Part shown: in pieces, positions 3,648 to 42,355 of the stretch
How positions within the stretch are numbered: position 1 is the stretch's first letter
Layout of the letters: each line of letters opens with the position of its first letter
NCBI RefSeq assembly: GCF_058153355.1
Contig: NZ_CM177019.1
Direction: 5' to 3' (one strand)
DNA: 64,000 bases
Notes under the pieces: generated by a model
Databases searched by the model: none
What the model saw: only the letters and a program-made list of their open reading frames with translations
Told to the model about the DNA's origin: nothing
Translations under genes and position numbers: made by a program

Positions 3648-4806
3648 AGTGAAATTGGCCGTACCGACATCCGGTGGCTTTTCCGGGCTGAAGTCACTGA
3701 ATTTGCAGGTCTTCGTGATGATTGCAGCTATCATCGCAATCATGCTGTTCTTTACCTGGACCACCGATGGTGCCTACTTAAGCGCCCGTAACGTCTCCAA
3801 CCTGTTACGCCAGACCGCGATTACCGGCATCCTCGCGGTAGGAATGGTGTTCGTCATAATTTCTGCTGAAATCGACCTTTCCGTCGGCTCAATGATGGGG
3901 CTATTAGGTGGCGTCGCGGCGATTTGTGACGTCTGGCTAGGCTGGCCTTTGCCACTTACCATCATTGTGACGTTGGTTCTGGGACTGCTTCTCGGTGCCT
4001 GGAACGGATGGTGGGTTGCATACCGCAAAGTCCCTTCATTTATTGTCACCCTCGCGGGCATGTTGGCATTTCGCGGCATACTCATTGGCATCACCAACGG
4101 CACGACTGTATCCCCCACCAGCGCCGCGATGTCACAAATCGGGCAAAGCTATCTACCCGCCAGCACCGGCTTCATCATTGGCGCGCTTGGCTTAATGGCT
4201 TTTGTTGGCTGGCAATGGCGCGGAAGAATGCGCCGTCAGGCTTTGGGTTTGCAGTCTCCGGCCTCTACCGCAGTTGTCGGTCGCCAGGCATTAACGGCGA
4301 TTATCGTCTTAGGCGCAATCTGGCTGTTGAACGATTACCGTGGCGTTCCCACTCCTGTTCTGCTGCTGACGTTGCTGTTACTCGGCGGAATGTTTATGGC
4401 AACGCGGACGGCATTTGGAAGACGCATTTATGCCATCGGCGGCAATCTGGAAGCAGCACGGCTCTCCGGGATTAACGTTGAACGCACCAAACTTGCCGTG
4501 TTCGCTATTAACGGATTAATGGTAGCCATCGCCGGATTAATCCTCAGTTCTCGACTTGGCGCAGGTTCACCTTCTGCGGGAAATATCGCCGAACTGGACG
4601 CAATTGCCGCATGTGTGATTGGCGGCACCAGTCTGGCAGGCGGAGTCGGGAGCGTGGCCGGAGCAGTAATGGGGGCATTCATCATGGCTTCACTGGATAA
4701 CGGCATGAGTATGATGGATGTACCGACCTTCTGGCAGTATATCGTTAAAGGTGCGATTCTGTTGCTGGCAGTATGGATGGACTCCGCAACCAAACGCCGT
4801 TCTTGA
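3625..4806 (+). CDS. xylH: D-xylose ABC transporter permease
   Basis: 393-aa polytopic membrane ORF overlapping the xylG 3' end; operon position. Confidence 0.95.
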
Positions 4807-29725: not shown

Positions 29726-30061
29726 ATGGAACTATTGACCAAACTAATGAATAACCCCAGTAAAACATCCACAGTACAGATAAAGCGTATTAAACCTTCA
29801 ATTATCTACCGTTTATTGCTGATTGGCCTCGGAACACCAATGGTGATTTACGGTCTGGTTTGCGGCGTTTTAGGCATATTTGGCTACGATCAGGTGAGAT
29901 GGAACGACACCGTGATCCACGGCCTGCTGGCCCTGCCTGCGGGATTGCTTGCAGGCCTGTCAGTCAGTGTGTTCCTCACCGTGGTGATTGGCACCATCGC
30001 TTGTTTTGGTCTGTGGCTGTACAGCCTGGTCCGCCCGCTCACCATCGAAACGCGAGATTAA
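29726..30061 (+). CDS. Hypothetical small membrane protein (start uncertain; 29678 is an alternative)
   Basis: ORF with hydrophobic helices (LLLIGLGTPMVIYGLVCGVLGIFGY; LLALPAGLLAGLSVSVFLTVVIGTIACFGLWLY); convergent with hicB; no family recognised. Confidence 0.4.
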   Translation: MELLTKLMNNPSKTSTVQIKRIKPSIIYRLLLIGLGTPMVIYGLVCGVLGIFGYDQVRWNDTVIHGLLALPAGLLAGLSVSVFLTVVIGTIACFGLWLYSLVRPLTIETRD

Positions 30062-30468
30062 ACGCCCGGCAATACACGCCGGGCGGCTTCCGCCAGAAAC
30101 GCACTTCTGTTGGCGTAGTCTGGGTTATTGCGCACGTAGGTATCAATCTTGTTCAGTAATCTTTTCGGCATCGTAATATTGATACGTTCAGCCCGACCTT
30201 CGAACTGATTCATATTGATATCCACCAGCAACCATTGCCCGCCAATAAAGTCCTGCGCACGCTGGACCAGATGTGTTTCCACAGAGCCTGGAAGCGGCAA
30301 CTCTTCATTCATCTCGCATAAGGTTTCGAAGTGCGCGACCAGTGCACTTCGCGCATCCTGGAAAGCGTTGTCCAGCGTATCACCAGCAAAATAACAGCCT
30401 GGAACATCAGGGAAAAAACCGCTGGCGCTGCCGTCAGGATCACTGTGGATATAGGCGGGATAAAACAT
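30058..30468 (-). CDS. hicB: HicB-family antitoxin (RNase H-like fold N-domain + C-terminal RHH DNA-binding motif)
   Basis: 136 aa; …NITMPKRLLNKIDTYVRNNPDYANRSAFLAEAARRVL is a ribbon-helix-helix tail typical of HicB; located 16 bp downstream of the hicA-like ORF. Confidence 0.75.
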   Translation of the reverse strand: MFYPAYIHSDPDGSASGFFPDVPGCYFAGDTLDNAFQDARSALVAHFETLCEMNEELPLPGSVETHLVQRAQDFIGGQWLLVDINMNQFEGRAERINITMPKRLLNKIDTYVRNNPDYANRSAFLAEAARRVLPGV

Positions 30469-30484
30469 ATTGCCTCCTGAAATT

Positions 30485-30670
30485 TTAAAATGTTAAACCA
30501 GCCTGACGCCCAATTTGCGCCAGCGTACCGGGCTTAATATCTTTTTTAGGGTGCGGAACCGTCACCAGACCCGGATGAACAGGGTGGCGGAACTGATGAT
30601 GACTACCACGGGTTCGAATATGTTCCCAGCCATGCTGCTTCAGGATGGCGATCACGTCTGCACTTTTCAC
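30485..30670 (-). CDS. hicA: HicA-family mRNA interferase toxin
   Basis: 61 aa: …TRGSHHQFRHPVHPGLVTVPHPKKDIKPGTLAQIGRQAGLTF matches the HicA signature (GSHH…P…K-D-I/L…G-T-L…I…Q-A-G-L). Confidence 0.75.
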   Translation of the reverse strand: MKSADVIAILKQHGWEHIRTRGSHHQFRHPVHPGLVTVPHPKKDIKPGTLAQIGRQAGLTF

Positions 30671-30947
30671 ATCCCTGCCCTTCCATGATTATACACACGA
30701 TACACACACATTTAGCAATAACAATCACGATAGCGCGATTTATATGGGCCGTCAGGGGGATAAAGTTGACTCAGGAATGCCGTTCGGAAGAAGAATAACG
30801 GTGTGCAGTAACTTGTTGAAAAGATGTGAGGAGACTCGTAATTAAGTTCAATCAATATTCAGTCATTCAAGACGTAGACATTTGAATTGGTAAAACGCGA
30901 AAGCGTCGCATCAGGCAATGAATACCCGATGCGACCAGCTTCTTACA

Positions 30948-32485
30948 TCAGAACAGCCCCAACGGTTTATCTGAGTAGCTCACCAGCAGGCACTTGGTTT
31001 GCTGATAATGCTCAAGCATCATCTTATGGGTTTCGCGCCCAATACCCGACTGCTTATAGCCACCAAACGCCGCATGTGTCGGGTAAGCGTGATAACAGTT
31101 GGTCCACACTCGCCCGGCCTGAATGCCGCGCCCCATCTTATAGGCCAGATTACCGTTGCGGCTCCAGACACCAGCCCCCAGACCATATTGCGTGTCGTTC
31201 GCCAGCTCCAGCGCTTCTTCCATCGTTTTGAAGGTGGTTACCGCCAGCACCGGACCAAAAATTTCTTCCTGGAACACGCGCATATTATTCTGACCAAACA
31301 GAATCGTCGGTTCGAGGTAGTAGCCGTCTTTCAGTTCGCCTTCCAGCAGCTTGCGCCGCCCACCGGTGAGCACGTCTGCGCCCTCTTTTTTACCGATATC
31401 AATGTAGTTGAGGATGGTTTCCAGTTGCCCGTGCGAAACTTGCGCCCCCATTTGCGTCACGCTATCGAGCGGGTTACCGCTGCGAATGCTTTCGACACGG
31501 CGGATGGCGCGTTCCATAAAGCGTTCGTAGATAGACTCCTGCACTAAAGCACGGCTTGGACAGGTGCAAACTTCGCCCTGGTTAAAGGCAAACAGTGCAA
31601 AGCCTTCCAGCGCTTTATCGAAAAAGGCATCTTCTTCATCCATCACATCAGCAAAGAAGATATTGGCGACTTGCCGCCCAGCTCCAGGGTTACCGGAATA
31701 ATATTTTGCGTGGCGTACTGCATAATTTGTTGGCCCACTTCCGTTGAGCCGGTAAACGCCACTTTAGCGATGCGTTTCGAGGTCGCCAGATATTCGCCAA
31801 TTTCCCCACCAGCACCGTTGACCACGTTCACCACGCCCGGCGGCAGTAAATCACCGACGATTTCCATTAGCAGCAGTACAGAAAGCGGGGTAAGACGTGC
31901 GGGTTTCAGCACCACACAGTTGCCCGCCGCCAGCGCGGGAGCCATTTTCCAGCTCGCCATCAGCAGCGGGAAGTTCCACGGAATAATCTGCCCCACCACG
32001 CCTAACGGTTCGTGGAAGTGATAAGCCACAGTTTCGCTATCAACTTCACTGATCCCACCTTCCTGCGCCCGAATACACGAGGCGAAATAGCGGAAGTGGT
32101 CAATCGCCAGCGGTACATCAGCAGCACTGGTTTCGCGAATGGGTTTGCCGTTATCCCAGGTTTCAGCCGTCGCTAAAAGTTCGAGGTTTTGCTCCATTCG
32201 ATCGGCAATCTTAAACAGAATCGCCGCGCGATCCTGCACCGAAGTATGCGCCCATTTATCTTTCACTTTATGCGCAGCATCCAGCGCCAGATCGATATCT
32301 CGTTTACCCGAAGACGCCACTTCGCACAGTAGCTGCCCGGTCACCGGCGTCAGGTTCTGGTAATACTCGCCGTCGGCGGGCGCGACCCATTCGCCGCCAA
32401 TAAAGTTGTCATAGCGGGCTTTTAACTTGAGGGGGAAGCCATACTCGCCGGGCTTAATCTGTGCTGAAGGGGGATTGTTGGTCAT
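30948..32485 (-). pseudogene. aldB: Aldehyde dehydrogenase B with a 1-bp deletion (frameshift) near codon ~279
   Basis: N-fragment ([20 protein letters not shown]… to …LELGGKSP) and C-fragment (…[16 protein letters not shown]… to …DKPLGLF) are both ALDH sequence in different frames; junction reads ggcaagtcgccaatatcttc, where a further A (ccaaatatc) would restore …[16 protein letters not shown]…. Confidence 0.8.
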
Positions 32486-32685
32486 GATCGTCTCCTTGCG
32501 GTGTGAGGTATAACAAGGGTAGACGTGACTGGCGAAATCTTCGCCAGCTGGTGATAGCTTTACGACGGCTATCACGAATTTACGGGCAAGGATTACAGAG
32601 ATAACTAAAACTCTCTCAAAAATCGCAAATTTTGAGAGAGTTGAAAAAATGGCTGACAATTAGCCAGCCATTGTGGGAATGATGA

Positions 32686-33837
32686 TTACATCGCCGCGCG
32701 ATAAATCGCCACAATTTCTTCGTGAGTTGCCTGAATCGGGTTAGTAAAGCCGCAGGCATCTTTCAGGGCATTGGTCGCCAGTACCGCGAAATCTTCTTCT
32801 TTCACGTTCAGGTCACGCAAGCCTGCCGGGATATTCACTTTCTTCGCCAGTTCACGGATGGCATTGATGCAGGCTTCTGCACCTTCCGCGTCGTTTTTAC
32901 CTGTCACGTTAACACCCATCGCGGCAGCGCAGTCACGCAAACGTGCAGCAGCGACTTTACTGTTGAATACCTGAACGTGCGGCAGCAGAACGGCGTTACA
33001 TACACCGTGCGGCAGATTGTAGAAACCACCTAACTGGTGCGCCATCGCATGAACATAACCCAGAGACGCATTGTTGAACGCCATACCCGCGAGGAACTGA
33101 GCGTAAGCCATTGCTTCGCGCGCTTTCTCATTGCTGCCATCTTCAACGGCTAAGGGCAGGTTTTCGGCAATCATAGTCACCGCTTTCAGTGCGCAAGCGT
33201 CGGTGATCGGCGTGGCGGCAATAGACACATACGCCTCGATAGCGTGCGTTAAGGCATCCATACCCGTTGCAGCGGTCAGTGACTTCGGCATACCGATCAT
33301 CAGAGAGGAGTCATTGACAGAAAGCAGCGGAGTCACGTGCTTATCCACAATCGCCATTTTGATGTGACGTGCTTCGTCGGTGATGATGCAGAAACGGGTC
33401 ATTTCTGATGCCGTACCCGCCGTGGTGTTGATGGCGATCATCGGCAACTGCGGTTTTGCAGAGCGGTCAACGCCTTCATAATCGCGGATGTCACCGCCGT
33501 TGGCTGCAACCAGCGCAATACCTTTTGCGCAGTCGTGTGGAGAACCACCGCCTAAGGAAATCACGCTATCGCAATTATTTTCTTTAAGTAATTTCAAACC
33601 TGCAGCGACGTTTTCCGTGGTGGGGTTAGGTTGGGTGCCATCATAAATAACGCTAAAAATATTGCGTTCTTCCAGTGCTTTTTGCACATCACCCGCCATA
33701 CCCAATTTCGTTAACATATTGTCAGTGACAATTAAGGTACGGGTAAATCCATAATCTGCCATCATATTCATTGCATCATTCAATGAATCAGCGCCGATAA
33801 CATTCACGGAAGGAATAAAAAAGGTTGAAGCTGCCAT
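32686..33837 (-). CDS. yiaY: Iron-containing (group III) alcohol dehydrogenase
   Basis: 383 aa; Fe-ADH signatures ([11 protein letters not shown], metal-binding His motifs). Confidence 0.9.
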
Positions 33838-34026
33838 AATACACTCCTGAAAGAGTAAAAAAGGGCCGGCAGCTTACTGAGGATTTTCATTTGAAAATAT
33901 GATCAACATTACCGTTTATTAAAATATTTTTAATAAAAAGCACGTTACATTCATCAAATAACGTGCTTCCTTAACATTAATAAGAACTTTGTATTAATTC
34001 ATATTTATTATGAATTAATCGCTCCC

Positions 34027-35871
34027 TTATTTTTCGGGAAATAATAATGCGTCGCGCAATAAATGATCATTTCCACGGCGACGCGTAAAGCCAATGCGGT
34101 CAAAATATTCCAGGATTTGAATTGCCAGCTTTCGGCCTACGCCTAAGCGATCGCGGAAATCCGCCGCGCAGGTTGAACCACATTCCTGATCGAGATCGCG
34201 GATCATATTGGCAAACTCGACAATCCGATCGTTACGGTAATAACGATCTTTAACGATCGCGGTAATTATCCCCTGTTGGGCCGCCTGGCGTAGCGTCAAA
34301 CGCATTGCCTGCTCGTCGGTTCCCGTCTCTTTTGCCAGGTCACGCACCCACCACGGCTCGTCACCAAACAGCGGCTCCGCTTTTTGCCAGATGGCCTGCT
34401 GCTCTTCGCTGAATCCCGCTTTATGATCCGGCAGATGCAGCCAACCGTGATGACTGAGGATGTCGCCGCTTTCGCGCATCTTTTCAATCAGCAACAGCAC
34501 CAGCGCTTCATCTTCCATTGGCAACGCCATGCGCCGCAGACGCTCGCGCCCAGGACCTGGTTCATCGCGATGTTGCTCATGATAAGTCGCTAATGTGTCG
34601 AGAATTTTCCGCTGCCAGCGAGCGGCAACCGGCGCATTCAACAAGCTATAACCAGCCTGAATATAGCCAGGCTGTTGCAGCAGTTCGCGCATCCCTTCGC
34701 CGTTGAGCTGGCGCGCCCAGGCGAAATCAGCAAGGTTAACCGCTCCGCGTTCCAGATGAATAGCTAACGCATCGGCATCGCTCTGCGCCTGTGCAAGAGA
34801 CGCCAGCCATTGCAGATATTCCGGCTTACGTTTACCGCGACGCGGCGGGTTAAGCATCACCACGCGCGCCCCCGCCAGCGTGTTGCGGGCCGAGATATCG
34901 CGTAGCACTAAGCGATCGTTATCTGCCAGCCACAGCGGCGTGTCGAACACCAACTCGGCAAGGTTATCTTCCAGCAGCGAAACGCGTCCCGTAACGTGGC
35001 TGGCGGCGTGGTGAATATGCAGCGGCTGCCACTGGGTCAACGGTGTATGAGTTTGAAGCTCGACTATCACCCGCGTAAACGGCTCCGGCGGCGCATCGGC
35101 AAGCAACCAGTCCCCACGGTTAATCTGTTCTTTTTCCGCATCACCCGCGATATTAAGCGCAATACGCTGCCCGGCATGAGCTGCATTTGTTGGCTGATTT
35201 TGCGCATGCAGCGCACGCACGCGCATCGGTTTATTTACACCAGTCAGCCAGAGTGAATCGCCTACCTTCACTTCCCCACTTAACGCCGTACCGGTGACGA
35301 CCAGCCCGGCACCTTTTACGGTAAAAGCACGGTCGATAGCGAGGCGGAAGCTATGTTGGCTGGCGTGTTCACGTTCTGGTAACTGAAGCAGATGCTCGCG
35401 CAGGGCATCAATTCCCCGGCCTTCGGTTGCTGCGGTGATAAACAGTTTTGCCTCAGCAAAACCGTATTCCCGCAGCACCTCCTTTACCTGGCGTTCAACC
35501 TCATCAACACGCGCTTCGTCCACGCGATCGGCTTTGGTCAGCGCCACTGTCAGCATCGGGTTACCGGTCAGCTGCAAAATCGCCAGATGCTCACGAGTCT
35601 GTGCCATCACGCCGTCATCGCACGCCACCACCAACAGCGCGTGATCGATACCCCCGACGCCCGCCAGCATGTTGGAAAGAAACTTTTCATGGCCGGGAAC
35701 GTCGATAAAACCCGGAACACGACCATCCGGCTGCGGCCAGTAGGCATAGCCGAGATCGATGGTCATGCCGCGCTTTTTTTCTTCCGGCAGACGGTCGGCA
35801 TTTACGCCAGTAATCGCCTGCAATAAGGTTGTTTTGCCGTGGTCAACGTGTCCGGCAGTCGCAATAATCAT
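34027..35871 (-). CDS. selB: Selenocysteine-specific translation elongation factor
   Basis: 614 aa; N-terminal GTPase ([22 protein letters not shown]…) plus C-terminal winged-helix extension; overlaps selA. Confidence 0.95.
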
Positions 35872-37259
35872 TTCAACAACATCTCCAAAAACCGTTGCTC
35901 ATCTTCAAGGCAGCGTAAATCCAGCCACAATCGTCCGTCATAAATACGACCAATCACCGGCACTGGCAATTCACGCCAGCGGGCGGCTAATGACTCAAGG
36001 TGGCTACCGCGTCCATCATGGGGTGTAAACGTTAATGCCGCGCTCGGCAGGCGATCAACCGGCAGCGAACCACTGCCAATCTGCGAAAGACATGGCATAA
36101 CCTGTACCGCGAACTCCGCGCCGTAATGTGCGGCAAGGGGGGCCTGTAAACGTTGTGCCTGGATTTGAATGACCTCTGCGCTGCGGGTAAGCAGACGCAG
36201 GGTCGGTAATTTTTCACTCAGCGCCTCAGGGTGTAAATAAAGACGCAACGTGGCTTCCAGCGCCGCGAGGGTCATTTTATCCGCGCGTAATGCACGCTTC
36301 AGTGGATGGCTTTGCAGGCGGGCGATCATCTCTTTTTTACCAACAATAATTCCTGCCTGCGGCCCGCCTAACAGCTTGTCGCCGGAGAAGCTCACCAGAC
36401 TGACGCCCGCCGCAATCAACTCCTGCGGCATTGGCTCTTTCGGCAAACCGTACTGGCTAAGATCAACCAGCGAGCCACTGCCTAAATCAGTTACTACGGG
36501 AACATCCAGCTCTTTGCCGAGCGCCACCAGTTCCGCTTCATCTATCGCTTTGGTGAATCCCTGAATGCTGTAGTTACTGGTATGTACTTTCATCAACAGC
36601 GCGGTATTTTCATTCACCGCCTGGCGATAATCATTAGCGTGCGTGCGATTGGTGGTCCCCACTTCGTGTAGGGTGCAGCCTGCCTGACGCATGACATCAG
36701 GAATACGAAACGCACCGCCAATCTCCACCAGTTCGCCGCGAGAAACCACAACCTCTTTCCCGCTGGCAGTGGCCGCCAACATCAACAAGACCGCCGCCGC
36801 ATTGTTATTAACGATACAGGCATCTTCCGCCCCCGTAATACGGCACAGCAGCTGCGCCAGCGCCCGATCGCGATGTCCGCGTCCGGCGTCATCCAGATCG
36901 TATTCGAGGGTTACTGGCGAACGCATAGCCTGCGCAACGGCTTCCACCGCGGCTTCCGCCTGTAAAGCTCGCCCAAGGTTGGTATGCAGCACGGTTCCCG
37001 TCAGGTTGATCACCGGACGCAGCGCGCTTTGCGCCTCTTTCGTCAACCGGGCATCAACTTCTTGCGCCCAGTTTTCACACCACGCGGGTAGCGTCTGGCT
37101 GTCACGAATCACTTCTCGCGCTTCGTCAAGCATCTGACGCAGCAACTCCACCACGCGGGTGTGACCATAGGTATCACGCAAAGAAAGGAAAGAGCTATCG
37201 CGCAATAAGCGATCAATAGCCGGAAGTTGACTATAGAGGGAACGCGTTTCGGTTGTCAT
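35868..37259 (-). CDS. selA: L-seryl-tRNA(Sec) selenium transferase
   Basis: 463 aa; PLP-dependent SelA fold (…[15 protein letters not shown]…). Confidence 0.95.
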
Positions 37260-37965: not shown

Positions 37966-38180
37966 GCCGAGTCCTTTGTGCGAGGAAAAATATCAGTATG
38001 GCCTGGTGATGGGAAAAAGGGCAGAAAATGTTGATGGTTTGTTACTTCCCAATAAATCACATATTTATCATGGTGATATAAATATTTTCCTAATTGTTCT
38101 TATCTGACAGATATCTCACTTAAGGCTTTCTTATAAATCTGTAGGGTTTGCACCATGAGTGCGGTAGCTATGAGGTTTAT

Positions 38181-40493
38181 ATGTCCTCAGAAGGATTACG
38201 TTTCACGCTGTCGGTGGCCGGTATCGTGGAGATGGCGACGGCGGTGGTGAGCTTCCGTCTGTACCAGCACCACTGCACGCCGTTCATCCTGGATGTGGAT
38301 ATCGCCAGCGGGCTGCCCGACCTGACGGCGGAGGATTTTCTGGAGAAGAGCGCGGTGCTGACGGTCTGGCAGGGTGATATCCCGCAGCGTTACGTCAGCG
38401 GTATCGTGACGGAGGTGCAGCTCGGTGAGAACAACGACTGGCAGATGCGTTATTCCCTGAGCATCAGCCCGCCGCTGTGGCGGGCAGGGTTACGGCAGAA
38501 CTTCCGTATCTTCCAGCAGCAGGACATTCAGACGATATCAGCACAGCTTCTGAGAGAGAACGGGGTGACGGCGTGGATGCCGCTGTTCTATGAGGCGCAC
38601 CCGGCGCGGGAGTTCTGCGTGCAGTACGGGGAGAGCGACCTGGCATTCCTGACCCGGCTGTGGGCGGAGGAAGGTATCTTCTTTTATGAGCGCTGCGGTC
38701 AGGAAGGGCCGGAGCAGAAGCTGGCGGTGTGTGATGACGTGGCGGGGCTGACGGGAATGGGGGCGCTGGCGTTTAACCCGAATACCACGACCGGGGGAAC
38801 GACGGAGTACATCAGTGAGTTTCGTTACCGTGCGCAGATAAGCGTGGCGTCGGTGGAGACGCAGGATTATACGTTCAAAACGCCGGGGTGGCCGGGGTAC
38901 TACAGCCATGACGGGGAGAGCCTGAACGGGCAGGGAACGCAGTACGAGATATTTGATTATCCGGGGCGTTTCAAGGATGAGCAGCATGGCCAGGATTTTG
39001 CGCGTTACCAGACGGAAGGGTGGCGGAACGGGGCGGAGACGGCGAGCGGGGTGTGTAACACGGCGCGGCTGTGGCCGGGAACGCGGTTCCGGCTGACGGG
39101 CCATCCCTCAGAGACGCTGAACCGGGAATGGCAGGTTGTGGGAAGCACACTGCGGGGAGAACAGCCGCAGGCGCTGCACGGGAGTCACGGTGAAGGGACG
39201 ACACTGAGCAATCAGTTTGAGGTGATACCGGCAGACAGGACGTGGCGTCACGCGCCGCTGCCGAAGCCGAAGGTGGACGGCCCGCAGAGTGCCATCGTGA
39301 CCGGGCCGAAGGGTGAGGAGATATTCTGCGACGAGCATGGCCGGGTACGGGTGAAGTTTCACTGGGACCGTTATCACGGGATGACGGAGGAGAGTTCGTG
39401 CTGGATACGGGTGTCGCAGGCATGGGCGGGACCGGGGTTCGGCAATCTGGCGATACCGCGTGTGGGTCAGGAAGTGATAGTGGACTTTCTGAACGGCGAC
39501 CCGGACCAGCCCATTGTGACGGGGCGGACCTACCATGAAGATAACCGTTCACCGGGGGATTTACCGGGCACGCGGACGCAGATGACCATCCGCTCGAAGA
39601 CCTATAAAGGAAGCGGCTTTAATGAACTGCGTTTCGAGGATGCGACGGACAGTGAGCAGGTGTATATCCACGCGCAGAAGAACATGGACACGGAGGTGCT
39701 TAACGACCGGACGACGGACGTGAAGCATGACCATACGGAGACCATCGGTAACGACCAGAAGATAAGGGTGGTGAAGGGGCAGACGGTTGAGGTCGGCACC
39801 AGAAAAGAAGGGGGTCACGACCAGAGTATCACGGTGGCGAACGACCGGCGCATAACGGTACGTAATGACCAGACGCTGAAGGTGACGAATGACCGGACGG
39901 TGAGCGTGAGTCACGATGACGGCCTGTATGTCAGAAACGACCGTAAAGTGACGGTGGAAGGGAAGCAGGAGCATAAGACGACGGGGAACCATATCAGCCT
40001 GGTGGAGGGAAAGCACAGTCTGGAGGTGAAGGGCGACCTGGCGGAGAAGGTGAGTGGCGCGCTGGGGATCAAGGTGGACGGGGATATCGTGCTGGAGAGC
40101 AGCAGCCGGATAAGCCTGAAAGTGGGCGGCTCGTTCGTGGTGATACACTCTGGCGGTGTGGATATTGCGGGGCCGAAGATAAACCTCAACGGGGGAGGCA
40201 GTCCGGGGACGCCAGTACAGACGTTACAACCGGTGGTACTGGAGGCGCTGGAGGATGAGAATGATGATGAGAACCCTGAAAAATATACTCTCCAGTTCCA
40301 TTTTACAGACGATGACGGGATACCGTATTCAGAGACACGCTACATTGCCTTCTTTGAGGACGGCACGCAGACGCGAGGGGAGACGGATGAAAATGGGTAT
40401 ACGGAAACATTCTCCACTGACAGCGAGCAGACAATCGAAGTCAGATTGTTGCATTTGAATATCGATATGATATGGGGAGGGATTAATGAATAG
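38181..40493 (+). CDS. vgrG: Type VI secretion spike protein VgrG (copy 1) with ~80-aa C-terminal extension (possible transthyretin-like adaptor domain)
   Basis: 770 aa from MSSEGLRFTLSVAGIVE…; gp27-like N-domain, gp5-like OB/beta-helix region with repeated VxVxV-type strands (…ITVANDRRITVRNDQTLKVTNDRTVSVSHDD…), then …VVIHSGGVDIAGPKINLNGGGSPG and an extension …YTLQFHFTDDDGIPYSETRYIAFFEDGTQTRGETDENGYTETF…. No YD repeats, so not Rhs. Confidence 0.9.
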   Translation: MSSEGLRFTLSVAGIVEMATAVVSFRLYQHHCTPFILDVDIASGLPDLTAEDFLEKSAVLTVWQGDIPQRYVSGIVTEVQLGENNDWQMRYSLSISPPLWRAGLRQNFRIFQQQDIQTISAQLLRENGVTAWMPLFYEAHPAREFCVQYGESDLAFLTRLWAEEGIFFYERCGQEGPEQKLAVCDDVAGLTGMGALAFNPNTTTGGTTEYISEFRYRAQISVASVETQDYTFKTPGWPGYYSHDGESLNGQGTQYEIFDYPGRFKDEQHGQDFARYQTEGWRNGAETASGVCNTARLWPGTRFRLTGHPSETLNREWQVVGSTLRGEQPQALHGSHGEGTTLSNQFEVIPADRTWRHAPLPKPKVDGPQSAIVTGPKGEEIFCDEHGRVRVKFHWDRYHGMTEESSCWIRVSQAWAGPGFGNLAIPRVGQEVIVDFLNGDPDQPIVTGRTYHEDNRSPGDLPGTRTQMTIRSKTYKGSGFNELRFEDATDSEQVYIHAQKNMDTEVLNDRTTDVKHDHTETIGNDQKIRVVKGQTVEVGTRKEGGHDQSITVANDRRITVRNDQTLKVTNDRTVSVSHDDGLYVRNDRKVTVEGKQEHKTTGNHISLVEGKHSLEVKGDLAEKVSGALGIKVDGDIVLESSSRISLKVGGSFVVIHSGGVDIAGPKINLNGGGSPGTPVQTLQPVVLEALEDENDDENPEKYTLQFHFTDDDGIPYSETRYIAFFEDGTQTRGETDENGYTETFSTDSEQTIEVRLLHLNIDMIWGGINE
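39163..40040. repeat. Near-identical ~0.9-kb vgrG 3'-core repeat, copy 1 of 3
   Basis: Sequence and six-frame antisense ORFs are identical to 43497-44374 and 49075-49900 (e.g. ORF 39602-39799 = 43935-44132 = 49459-49656). Confidence 0.85.
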
Positions 40494-40576
40494 AGAGTGA
40501 CCGCCTGTAATTGGCGTGTTTTTGCATAAATGGAACAGGGTTTTGTAGTGAAAACATATTGCTAAGGAGGATTTAT

Positions 40577-41422
40577 ATGGGAGATGGAAAGGGTAGTACG
40601 AGCGGAAAAAGCCAGAGCGGTGAACAGTGTGTAGTTTTAAAGGAGGGAAAAATTACTAATGATTTTAAAATAATGATGAGAGAGGCTCTGAAGGCGCTGA
40701 TGGCTGTATTGAAGAAAAGAGTAGAAGATCTTGGTGATAAATGGGGAGAGGAACAAAATCAGGAGTTTATAAATATATTTGGTATTGATGGAAATACTTA
40801 TATTAAATTAGAGTTCCCTTTCGGGGGGCGTAAGGTTATGTTTCCAGAGAATATAAAGGCAAGGGATTATATGAGAAATGGCGTTACTCGCCTGTATGAG
40901 ATATGTGGGGAATTATCTGTGGAAGGTGATTGTGTAGACGTTACTATTCATGACCATTTCCTCAAACGTGATGCCAATTGTAATCTTGTTCTTAATGACA
41001 AAGGGGGTAATGAATATGTTGACAAAGACGTAATCAGGCCCAAAACCGGTAACTTTGTGAATTGTACAGATAATGACGCTTATGCTGCCAATGTAACTTA
41101 CGATCAGATTTTGGGTGTAAAACCTGGAGGCTTTAAAAGTTTGGTAAGTATAACTATAGGACAAAGATTTATAGATAGGCCACCCACTGGGAAAAACTCT
41201 AAGGCATCGACACTCTGCCATGAACTATCTCACTTTATAAGGTACGGGGATTCATTTAAGTTTGGAGGCATGTGGACGGAAGATATGCCGGTAGATATAG
41301 AGTATAATACAGGTGACGAATATATTGTTCATGCCACTAAATTAAAAAATGATAAAAAATCAGAACTATTTCAGAATGCATATAATATCGAACGTTATTT
41401 CGAGATTCATGTACCATATTGA
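40577..41422 (+). CDS. Putative T6SS effector, HExxH zincin-like metallopeptidase candidate
   Basis: 281 aa from ATG 40577 (RBS aaggagg upstream); AT-rich; HELSH motif at 41219-41233 followed by …GGMWTEDMPVDIEYNTGDEY…; no signal peptide; directly downstream of vgrG-1. Confidence 0.55.
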   Translation: MGDGKGSTSGKSQSGEQCVVLKEGKITNDFKIMMREALKALMAVLKKRVEDLGDKWGEEQNQEFINIFGIDGNTYIKLEFPFGGRKVMFPENIKARDYMRNGVTRLYEICGELSVEGDCVDVTIHDHFLKRDANCNLVLNDKGGNEYVDKDVIRPKTGNFVNCTDNDAYAANVTYDQILGVKPGGFKSLVSITIGQRFIDRPPTGKNSKASTLCHELSHFIRYGDSFKFGGMWTEDMPVDIEYNTGDEYIVHATKLKNDKKSELFQNAYNIERYFEIHVPY

Positions 41423-41446
41423 TGCTTTTATTTGACGGGGGAGTAT

Positions 41447-42355
41447 ATGCTTGCTAGATGGATTGTTTTTATTGTTTTTTTTGCGCATCCAATATTTGCT
41501 TATGATATCTCTGGCGATTATGCTGTTCATTACAGATATGGGAAGTTATATTGGAATGGAGTAATGGACAAACTTGGTGTCTATCCTCGTGTAGAGCCGA
41601 CAAGGCTTAATTATTATGATTATTATGATGATCTTTCAGCCTATGCTGTTTTTCAATATTATACTATCAGTAAAAATGAGAGTCAGTATAATCAAGATAA
41701 AAATAAAATATATCTTCATCTTTCCGTGCATCAGAAAGAAAATATTGTAGCAGCTGCAGTGGTTTTATCGAATAAAAGCCAGGGATCTTATTTTGTTCAT
41801 CGACTAACTCTTCCTCTTGACGTTAACGGCGGGCCTTACTCTTCCTTGTGTAGTGGTGTGTTTATACCGATAATGGATAACATTCAGTTGGATTTTTTAA
41901 AAAAAACAAAATGTAGCTTTGGTGAATGGAAAAATAAATCCGTTTGGCACGAGATATTAACAGGGAAAGAGCTATCCTTTGATGTCATATTGAACGATTA
42001 TTATGCCTTTTTACCGGGCATTCATCGTTATAATATAGGAACGGTAGAATTTACAATAGTTAATCAAGAGTGGTTTACAGAACAATGTATATATGAGTAT
42101 TTTCTTTCTATTATGAACTGGCGGGCAGAAAGTGAGTGTACTAATCCTATAGATAAAATAAGATATGGTATAGAGGAGTGGCGGGTTTGGAGAATTTGTG
42201 GACCTTATCGTGGGTCAGGTCTATTTCAGGATTTTTTAGCACGCTTTGGCTATCATGGCGGTAATGATAATATATTCAAAATAAGATCAAATCAGGTTGT
42301 GGTTACTATTGATGGGGATAGGGCATCTCCTCCTTATTCGTTGAGGAATTATTAA
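41447..42355 (+). CDS. Putative cognate immunity protein (secreted/periplasmic) for the HExxH effector
   Basis: ~303 aa with N-terminal signal peptide MLARWIVFIVFFAHPIFA; AT-rich; starts 24 bp after the effector stop; no recognisable family. Confidence 0.45.
   Translation: MLARWIVFIVFFAHPIFAYDISGDYAVHYRYGKLYWNGVMDKLGVYPRVEPTRLNYYDYYDDLSAYAVFQYYTISKNESQYNQDKNKIYLHLSVHQKENIVAAAVVLSNKSQGSYFVHRLTLPLDVNGGPYSSLCSGVFIPIMDNIQLDFLKKTKCSFGEWKNKSVWHEILTGKELSFDVILNDYYAFLPGIHRYNIGTVEFTIVNQEWFTEQCIYEYFLSIMNWRAESECTNPIDKIRYGIEEWRVWRICGPYRGSGLFQDFLARFGYHGGNDNIFKIRSNQVVVTIDGDRASPPYSLRNY

Follow-up and report, generated by a model that had tools for sequence, protein, structure and literature searches.

The stretch of DNA analysed here (the window, 64,000 nucleotides) contains the Escherichia selA-selB-yiaY cluster, with all three genes on the minus strand. 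The product of yiaY is an iron-dependent alcohol dehydrogenase, annotated as L-threonine dehydrogenase. The spacer between selB and yiaY (33838–34026) was found to be 189 bp long with a GC content of 29%. The original prediction had placed a palindrome in this spacer, upstream of yiaY and downstream of selB, and this gene context was right, as the open reading frames matched the E. coli annotation. The genes are located as follows:

35868–37259, minus strand: selA, as annotated in E. coli genomes
34027–35871, minus strand: selB, an open reading frame, so annotated in E. coli genomes
34027–34029, minus strand: stop codon of selB (TAA); the dyad described below starts 7 nt downstream
32686–33837, minus strand: yiaY, an open reading frame named from the E. 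coli annotation, with Fe-ADH Pfam domains in its product

The segment comprising the 3' end of selB, yiaY and aldB (window positions 33500–34400 and 30000–33000) represents an unusually divergent haplotype, which shares ~93% identity with K-12 and most E. coli. One genome was at least 99% identical across the 901-bp query (33500–34400), and 22 genomes were at least 99% identical over a 106-nt stretch of the spacer. In the closest genomes, hicAB toxin-antitoxin genes were annotated inside the matched aldB region. In the window, aldB (30948–32659) is split over two overlapping open reading frames, with AldB residues 1–274 in one frame and residues 270–512 in another, which implies a frameshift near 31664–31680 and either a pseudogene or a sequencing error. 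Seven GATC sites were found within ~110 bp at the 3' end of selB (34149–34255), the densest such cluster in the 64-kb window. The region 38148–42355 holds an open reading frame of 781 aa for a VgrG-like type VI secretion spike (Phage_GPD, Gp5_trimer_C), after which come two open reading frames of 303 and 307 aa without a Pfam match, which may be an effector/immunity pair.

The palindrome was found in the window as it had been quoted (taattcata-tttat-tatgaatta), and it is indeed an inverted repeat, but its arms are longer than the 9 bp originally given. Perfect pairing continues for 2 bp more on each side, resulting in 11-bp arms, ATTAATTCATA (33993–34003) and TATGAATTAAT (34009–34019), around a 5-nt centre (34004–34008). 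The original span of 33985–34015 started 8 nt too early and lost 4 nt of the right arm, the true extent being 33993–34019. Arms of at least 11 bp with a loop of at most 12 were obtained in 0.28% of 5000 dinucleotide-preserving shuffles of the 189-bp spacer. Because shuffling rarely gave such a repeat (P ~0.003), AT-richness alone is not enough to account for the palindrome. Five perfect repeats with 11-bp arms were observed in the whole window versus 0.17 expected, and three perfect repeats of at least 10 bp were observed in the spacer versus 0.014 expected. The dyad symmetry is beyond chance, as is looked for in an operator. Two self-complementary ATTAAT hexamers are separated by 21 bp centre to centre; since this corresponds to two helical turns, they lie on one face of the helix.

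The surrounding spacer, previously described as otherwise featureless, turned out to contain two further perfect 10-bp inverted repeats (33938–33968 and 33915–33937) and several conserved blocks. On the minus strand, from 5' to 3', the selB stop codon is followed by 7 nt, the dyad, ACAAA, a variable linker, a terminator hairpin, the third repeat, GATCATATTTT, GTAAGCTGCC, the Shine-Dalgarno sequence and the yiaY ATG. The elements of the spacer are listed below, with the dyad divided into its conserved arms and its variable centre:

34011–34019, unstranded: arm 2, TGAATTAAT; the 11-bp arm starts at 34009; the lowest-entropy part of the element (mean 0.27 across 18 sequences)
34002–34010, unstranded: centre, N9; constant at 9 bp without indels and variable in sequence; the outer 2+2 bases pair in the window
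33993–34001, unstranded: arm 1, ATTAATTCA; pairing here runs on to 34003 (ATTAATTCATA); identical in 11 Escherichia/Citrobacter genomes
33988–33992, minus strand: ACAAA flank, adjoining arm 2 on the selB/yiaY strand; alignment columns 98–102, mean entropy 0.29
33932–33968, minus strand: likely selAB intrinsic terminator; stem AAGCACGTTA/TAACGTGCTT (33938–33947 and 33959–33968), 11-nt loop, then TTTTTATT
33915–33937, unstranded: TTTATTAAAA-ATA-TTTTAATAAA, the third of the perfect repeats, with the terminator on one side and the GATCATATTTT block on the other
33894–33904, minus strand: GATCATATTTT, putative yiaY core promoter (−10 region) or operator; first of 183 nine-column alignment windows in conservation rank

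Conservation was inspected by a SelB-anchored scan with one genome per species, which gave 80 loci. It was found that yiaY follows selB, across a spacer of ~190 bp, in Escherichia, Citrobacter, Pseudocitrobacter, Kluyvera, two Enterobacter species, Intestinirhabdus and Pluralibacter, and that it does not follow selB in most Enterobacter, Klebsiella, Raoultella, Kosakonia, Lelliottia and Buttiauxella. The conserved unit was ATTAATTCA-N9-TGAATTAAT. The window, E. coli 24A16, E69 and MNCRE44, and eight species of the Citrobacter freundii complex matched this unit at all 18 arm positions. One arm mismatch was found in E. albertii, Citrobacter Cu233 and Pseudocitrobacter, and two to three in K-12, O157, Escherichia sp. 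E1V33 and C. amalonaticus. The dyad was unrecognisable in the orthologous spacers of C. sedlakii, Kluyvera, Enterobacter, Intestinirhabdus and Pluralibacter. In the ~53 genomes without yiaY after selB it was never found there, and it occurred only where yiaY follows selB. The decay of the dyad was strongest where yiaY is truncated (locus L006) or where 140 bp have been inserted (C. amalonaticus, L016). Conservation in orthologous spacers, the check named in the original prediction, was therefore obtained in part: the element is kept in Escherichia, Citrobacter and Pseudocitrobacter, but most E. coli have a degenerate form of it, and four of the genera just named (Kluyvera, Enterobacter, Pluralibacter and Intestinirhabdus) lack it.

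Among the carriers, the onset of the dyad 7 nt past the stop codon on the transcribed strand and the spacing of exactly 9 bp between the arms were constant. Across the eight Citrobacter species, none of the 18 arm columns varied, compared with seven of the nine centre columns (Fisher P = 4 × 10–5) and 45 of the 173 columns in the rest of the spacer (26%, P = 0.008). In an alignment of 18 sequences, a sample that is small and phylogenetically clustered, the two arms ranked 7th and 15th in conservation among 183 nine-column windows and the centre ranked 160th. The mean entropy of the arms was 0.24–0.27, versus 0.86–1.11 between the conserved blocks of the spacer. Thus the half-sites are kept, the spacing is fixed and the centre is free, which is the pattern looked for in an operator. 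The distance from the dyad centre to the GATC of the conserved core block was 99–100 bp in Escherichia and Citrobacter and 90 bp in Pseudocitrobacter, i.e. one helical turn less. These distances are consistent with a helical-phase constraint, and are far from proof of it.

Within E. coli, the 106-nt stretch of the window type was found in 1337 of 5426 complete genomes (~25%), and its representatives 24A16, E69 and MNCRE44 (ST131) carry the perfect element. The K-12-type stretch was found in 3933 complete genomes (~72%). K-12, O157 and E2348/69 carry ATTAATTAA-N9-TAAATTAAT, with one mismatch per arm, by which the single C:G pair of each arm is gone. Both haplotypes contain one copy per genome. 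A REP/BIME-like repeat, which needs many dispersed copies, was rejected for this reason, as the sequence occupies one place per genome in the 1337 and 3933 E. coli.

It was also observed that yiaY has been lost or damaged repeatedly. In E. coli ETEC1701 (L004), an IS1-associated deletion has joined the end of selB to a truncated TRAP permease gene that neighbours yiaM. Internal deletions in Escherichia sp. MOD1-EC7003 (L006) and Citrobacter sp. Cu233 (L012) leave only the C-terminal 58–77 residues of YiaY, and E. coli 24A16 (L002) has a frameshift in yiaY. The gene appears to be dispensable in several lineages.

The uneven distribution of the dyad raises the possibility that it has no function at all, and that a palindrome produced by chance or by template-switch ('quasipalindrome') errors was kept in some lineages by common descent and because hairpin-templated repair corrects itself, and is decaying elsewhere. 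The degenerate version in most E. coli (K-12, O157 and E2348/69 included) would be understandable in this way, and so would the absence from Kluyvera, Enterobacter, Pluralibacter and Intestinirhabdus despite the adjacency of selB and yiaY. Unrelated palindromes at the same spot, such as AATTGATAT-N7-ATATCAATT in L063, imply that the spacer is prone to palindromes, as do its three perfect repeats of at least 10 bp, and a hairpin loop would likewise give a hypervariable centre. On the other hand, Escherichia and Citrobacter have the same arm sequences despite heavy divergence in the stretches that separate the conserved blocks, the invariant Citrobacter arm columns (0 of 18) stand against a background of 26%, and the spacing is strictly constant. 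A palindrome without function is regarded as the leading alternative, at clearly less than even chances; the covariation data given below also bear on it.

The original prediction had offered a weak terminator element for selB as an alternative role. The dyad does form a hairpin on the coding strand straight after selB, but only one of its 11 pairs is G-C, the sequence that follows is ACAAAGUUCUUAUUAAUG (ACAAAGUUC) with no U-tract, and in K-12 the hairpin has a z score of only −0.4. Neither a G+C-rich stem, nor a U-run, nor pairing maintained with compensatory changes, as expected of intrinsic terminators, was found at the dyad. A proper terminator hairpin was found 24 nt downstream of it (33932–33968), with a 10-bp stem, a folding energy of −16.3 kcal/mol (z −4.8) and UUUUUAUU directly after it. 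In the 18 sequences, three of its 10 pairs were changed on both sides and 96% of the cells were paired, the compensatory changes lying between the E. coli haplotypes and Citrobacter; in Pseudocitrobacter and Enterobacter, a different hairpin is present at this position. These results indicated that the selAB intrinsic terminator is likely this second hairpin and not the dyad, and the terminator role proposed for the latter is very improbable. A consensus promoter/terminator scan of both strands found no site. The hairpin at 33932–33968 was missed by it because its loop is 11 nt, whereas the scan was limited to 8. The annotation of the spacer is therefore to be corrected in two respects: the selAB terminator is the next hairpin and not the dyad, and the spacer does have features.

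Beyond the terminator, the GATCATATTTT block was the most conserved part of the spacer. It contains an invariant GATC, lies 67–68 bp from the yiaY ATG, and is kept in Escherichia, Citrobacter, Enterobacter, Kluyvera, Pluralibacter and Pseudocitrobacter. This block probably serves as the core promoter of yiaY or as an operator, possibly with Dam sensitivity; no sigma-70 consensus was found there by consensus scan. At the position of the third repeat, Citrobacter (L010–L024, around 4452–4467) carries another palindrome, TGTTATT-AA-AATAACA, so that symmetry is kept without sequence conservation, roughly at the expected −35/activator position. In the yiaY leader, AAGCTGCC (33868–33875) can pair with GGCAGCTT in codons 2–4 (33828–33835), so that the Shine-Dalgarno sequence and the AUG lie inside the fold (−18 kcal/mol, z −2.5). 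The leader block GTA(A/T)GCTGCC is conserved, and the pairing was poorer in Citrobacter by eye. The pairing might serve to control translation, or have some other role.

Because the dyad is located upstream of the selAB terminator, it is transcribed as part of the selB 3'UTR. It could thus act as an RNA element in the selAB mRNA, where it would block 3' exonucleases, assist termination, or form part of a 3'UTR-derived small RNA with the conserved UGAAUUAAUACAAA as seed. The RNA hairpin of the window folds at −8.3 kcal/mol (z −5.9), and arm 2 together with ACAAA makes a conserved 14-nt block before a U-tailed terminator, the usual layout of 3'UTR-derived small RNAs. However, the hairpin is weak or shuffle-like in many relatives. 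It was calculated to be −3.8 kcal/mol in K-12 (z −0.4), −1.6 kcal/mol in SCPM and −3.0 kcal/mol in Pseudocitrobacter, in all three no better than in shuffled sequences, and ~−6 kcal/mol in Citrobacter with a 9-nt loop. As DNA, the hairpin was −7.1/−7.4 kcal/mol in the window versus −2.0 kcal/mol (z −0.1) in K-12. No U-run follows it. A scan of 33000–35000 against Rfam 15 (E ≤ 10) gave only sub-threshold chance hits, none of them on the palindrome, and a literature search found no mention of a selB 3'UTR RNA.

The scarcity of covariation in the dyad helix also speaks against such an RNA. In the 18-sequence alignment, one compensatory cell and 10 unpaired cells were counted. Departures from the dyad consensus are unpaired cells, and the decaying element simply loses its pairing. 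Since the dyad is almost without compensatory change and the neighbouring terminator covaries at three pairs, it appears that sequence rather than pairing has been constrained here. A role as RNA element is consequently considered unlikely. The same observation weakens the reading without function, because template switching keeps pairing while the sequence drifts, so that covariation would be expected, and none was seen beyond the one cell. Two further RNA candidates were set aside. In E. coli, an outer helix UAAGGA/UUCUUA surrounds the hairpin; Citrobacter does not preserve this helix. The SECIS of fdhF and fdnG has a G+C-rich upper stem and a conserved apical loop recognised by SelB; the dyad hairpin, AUUAAUUCAUA-AUAAA-UAUGAAUUAAU, bears no resemblance to it by inspection, and no SECIS model hit was obtained.

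A site-specific recombinase core or an integration hotspot was also considered, since dif, lox and att cores likewise have arms on either side of a short middle region. The 11-5-11 (or 9-9-9) geometry and the lineage-specific centre are superficially like such cores, and the neighbourhood does vary: a Fic gene lies between yiaY and aldB in E2348/69, hicAB lies near aldB in the present haplotype, and IS1 lies at the selB end in ETEC1701. But no rearrangement junction was observed at the palindrome, no integrase is adjacent to it, and there is one copy per genome, which makes this explanation hardly credible.

Conserved half-sites, fixed spacing, a free centre and near-absent covariation point to a symmetric protein that recognises duplex DNA in a sequence-specific manner, rather than to selection for an RNA or cruciform fold. 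As the best-supported reading, at about even chances, we consider the element to be a sequence-specific protein-binding dyad in double-stranded DNA, and part of an AT-rich control region upstream of yiaY, which is most plausibly the gene served. From this evolutionary pattern we infer that a protein may bind here, what kind of protein it may be, and that yiaY may be its target. The original suggestion of a regulator-binding site for yiaY gains from the conserved arms, the fixed 9-bp spacing, the free centre and the near absence of covariation; it loses from the position ~100 bp from GATCATATTTT with the terminator in between, and from the lack of a matching regulator consensus. The dyad centre is 167–168 bp from the yiaY ATG, or at about −115 from the guessed transcription start, with the terminator intervening. 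A location so far upstream, across a terminator hairpin, is unusual for a simple operator.

What is reported on the expression of yiaY fits an AT-rich control region silenced in the H-NS manner. The gene was not transcribed in K-12 under the conditions of a previous study (PMC11741368). Shigella yiaY was induced anaerobically (log2 3.2) and its expression was lower in an fnr mutant, and yiaY is absent from the E. coli FNR ChIP peaks given in the same report (PMC4229854). Ler, an antagonist of H-NS, activated yiaY 5- and 9-fold in EPEC E2348/69 (PMC3891560). The control region is thus probably H-NS/Ler-sensitive. The activation by Ler cannot be tied to the perfect palindrome, as E2348/69 has the degenerate copy of the K-12/O157 type. 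Because ~72% of E. coli have a degenerate copy and Ler activation was reported in such a strain, the perfect dyad is dispensable in most E. coli.

To compare the dyad with known regulator sites, 22 regulator consensus sequences were scored against shuffled sequence at the 5% level. They included CRP, FNR, ArcA, Fur, IHF, Fis, Lrp, ArgR, NsrR, NikR, ModE, MetR, TyrR, PurR, H-NS, LexA, NarL, Nac, GcvA, RcsB and OxyR. None of these 22 consensuses beat the shuffles, the best being NarL (9%) and the ARG box (12%), and the motif comparison proposed earlier thus gave no match. An ARG-box junction was rejected because it requires ATTCA-N7-TGAAT and the spacing of the dyad is N9. The local regulators were rejected as binders as well. 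The PlaR/YiaJ box, ATnTGAAACnnnGTTCAnTT, is unrelated to the dyad (PMC6958661), and YiaU/LpsR, the nearest LysR-type regulator, has reported targets elsewhere, yiaY not being among them (PMC9068703). Inspection of both strands by eye showed no convincing promoter-like hexamers in or beside the palindrome. A literature search found no reported regulator site at selB/yiaY and no reported H-NS occupancy at the dyad. A search of 114 kb of E. coli DNA, allowing up to three mismatches, gave no second copy of the motif; by chance, about 1.7 sites per genome would be expected at up to three mismatches and about 0.1 at up to two. The exact motif had at least 120 matches in metagenome contigs; among the matches listed, those identified as enterobacterial were selB-yiaY loci only, and those in other contexts belonged to unrelated low-GC organisms with no Fe-ADH or selB nearby. 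There is no sign of a regulon, because a second copy was lacking in the 114 kb and only selB-yiaY loci were seen among the listed metagenome matches that were checked.

If the dyad is a protein-binding site, the contacts of a dimeric DNA-binding protein would fall on the two invariant arms, with none on the 9-bp centre. The binder could be some regulator, or an H-NS-family protein (H-NS, StpA or Ler) that would nucleate silencing at the dyad. Bound there, it might modulate the normally silent, anaerobically induced yiaY from ~100 bp upstream of GATCATATTTT. Such a control site would sit physically in the selB 3'UTR, between the selB stop codon and the selAB terminator. Should the dyad be a regulator operator, or a dedicated Ler/H-NS nucleation point that gates a cryptic yiaY from the selAB 3'UTR, the haplotype split in E. 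coli could be a natural regulatory polymorphism with strain-specific yiaY expression, a suggestion that we make tentatively and hold to be rather doubtful. The dyad offers a concrete handle on yiaY control, as a pull-down probe and as a target for mutation, and it hints that E. coli lineages may be polymorphic in the regulation of this gene. In other respects, we see in it one candidate cis-element of an ordinary class, that of cis-acting protein-binding dyads.

Compared with known systems, the dyad is like intrinsic terminators in being a coding-strand hairpin just past a stop codon, and unlike them in having no G+C-rich stem, U-tract or covariation. With H-NS nucleation sites it shares an AT-rich context (29% GC) and a T-A step, and yiaY behaves as a silenced, Ler-switchable gene. 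Against the high-affinity nucleation template tCG(t/a)TA(a/t)ATt (Lang et al. 2007, PMC2094087), GCGATTAATT of the window matched at eight of 10 positions, a score reached by 20% of shuffles. GCGATTAATT has the 8-mer CGATTAAT in common with a footprinted site of cspA, CCGATTAATC (PMC2094087, Table 1). Unlike the template, however, the CG is not conserved, K-12 having TGATTAATT and Citrobacter CAATTAATT. The H-NS motif is weakly specific, occurring in ~39 of 99 random 500-bp regions (PMC2094087). From recognition as loose as that of H-NS alone, one would not expect 18 invariant positions around a 9-bp centre that is free to vary.

In comparison with the operator dyads of transcription factors, two differences were noted: no divergent regulator gene lies beside the dyad, and it is located within the 3'UTR of the operon that precedes yiaY, ~115 bp before the presumed start. 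LysR-type boxes are of the ATC-N9-GAT / T-N11-A kind, and the inner TCA-N9-TGA of the dyad has the same 3-N9-3 geometry. Like the operator dyads of dimeric or tetrameric transcription factors such as the LysR type, the element consists of two inverted, conserved half-sites with a free 9-bp spacer, is AT-rich, and lies upstream of a gene that it may regulate.
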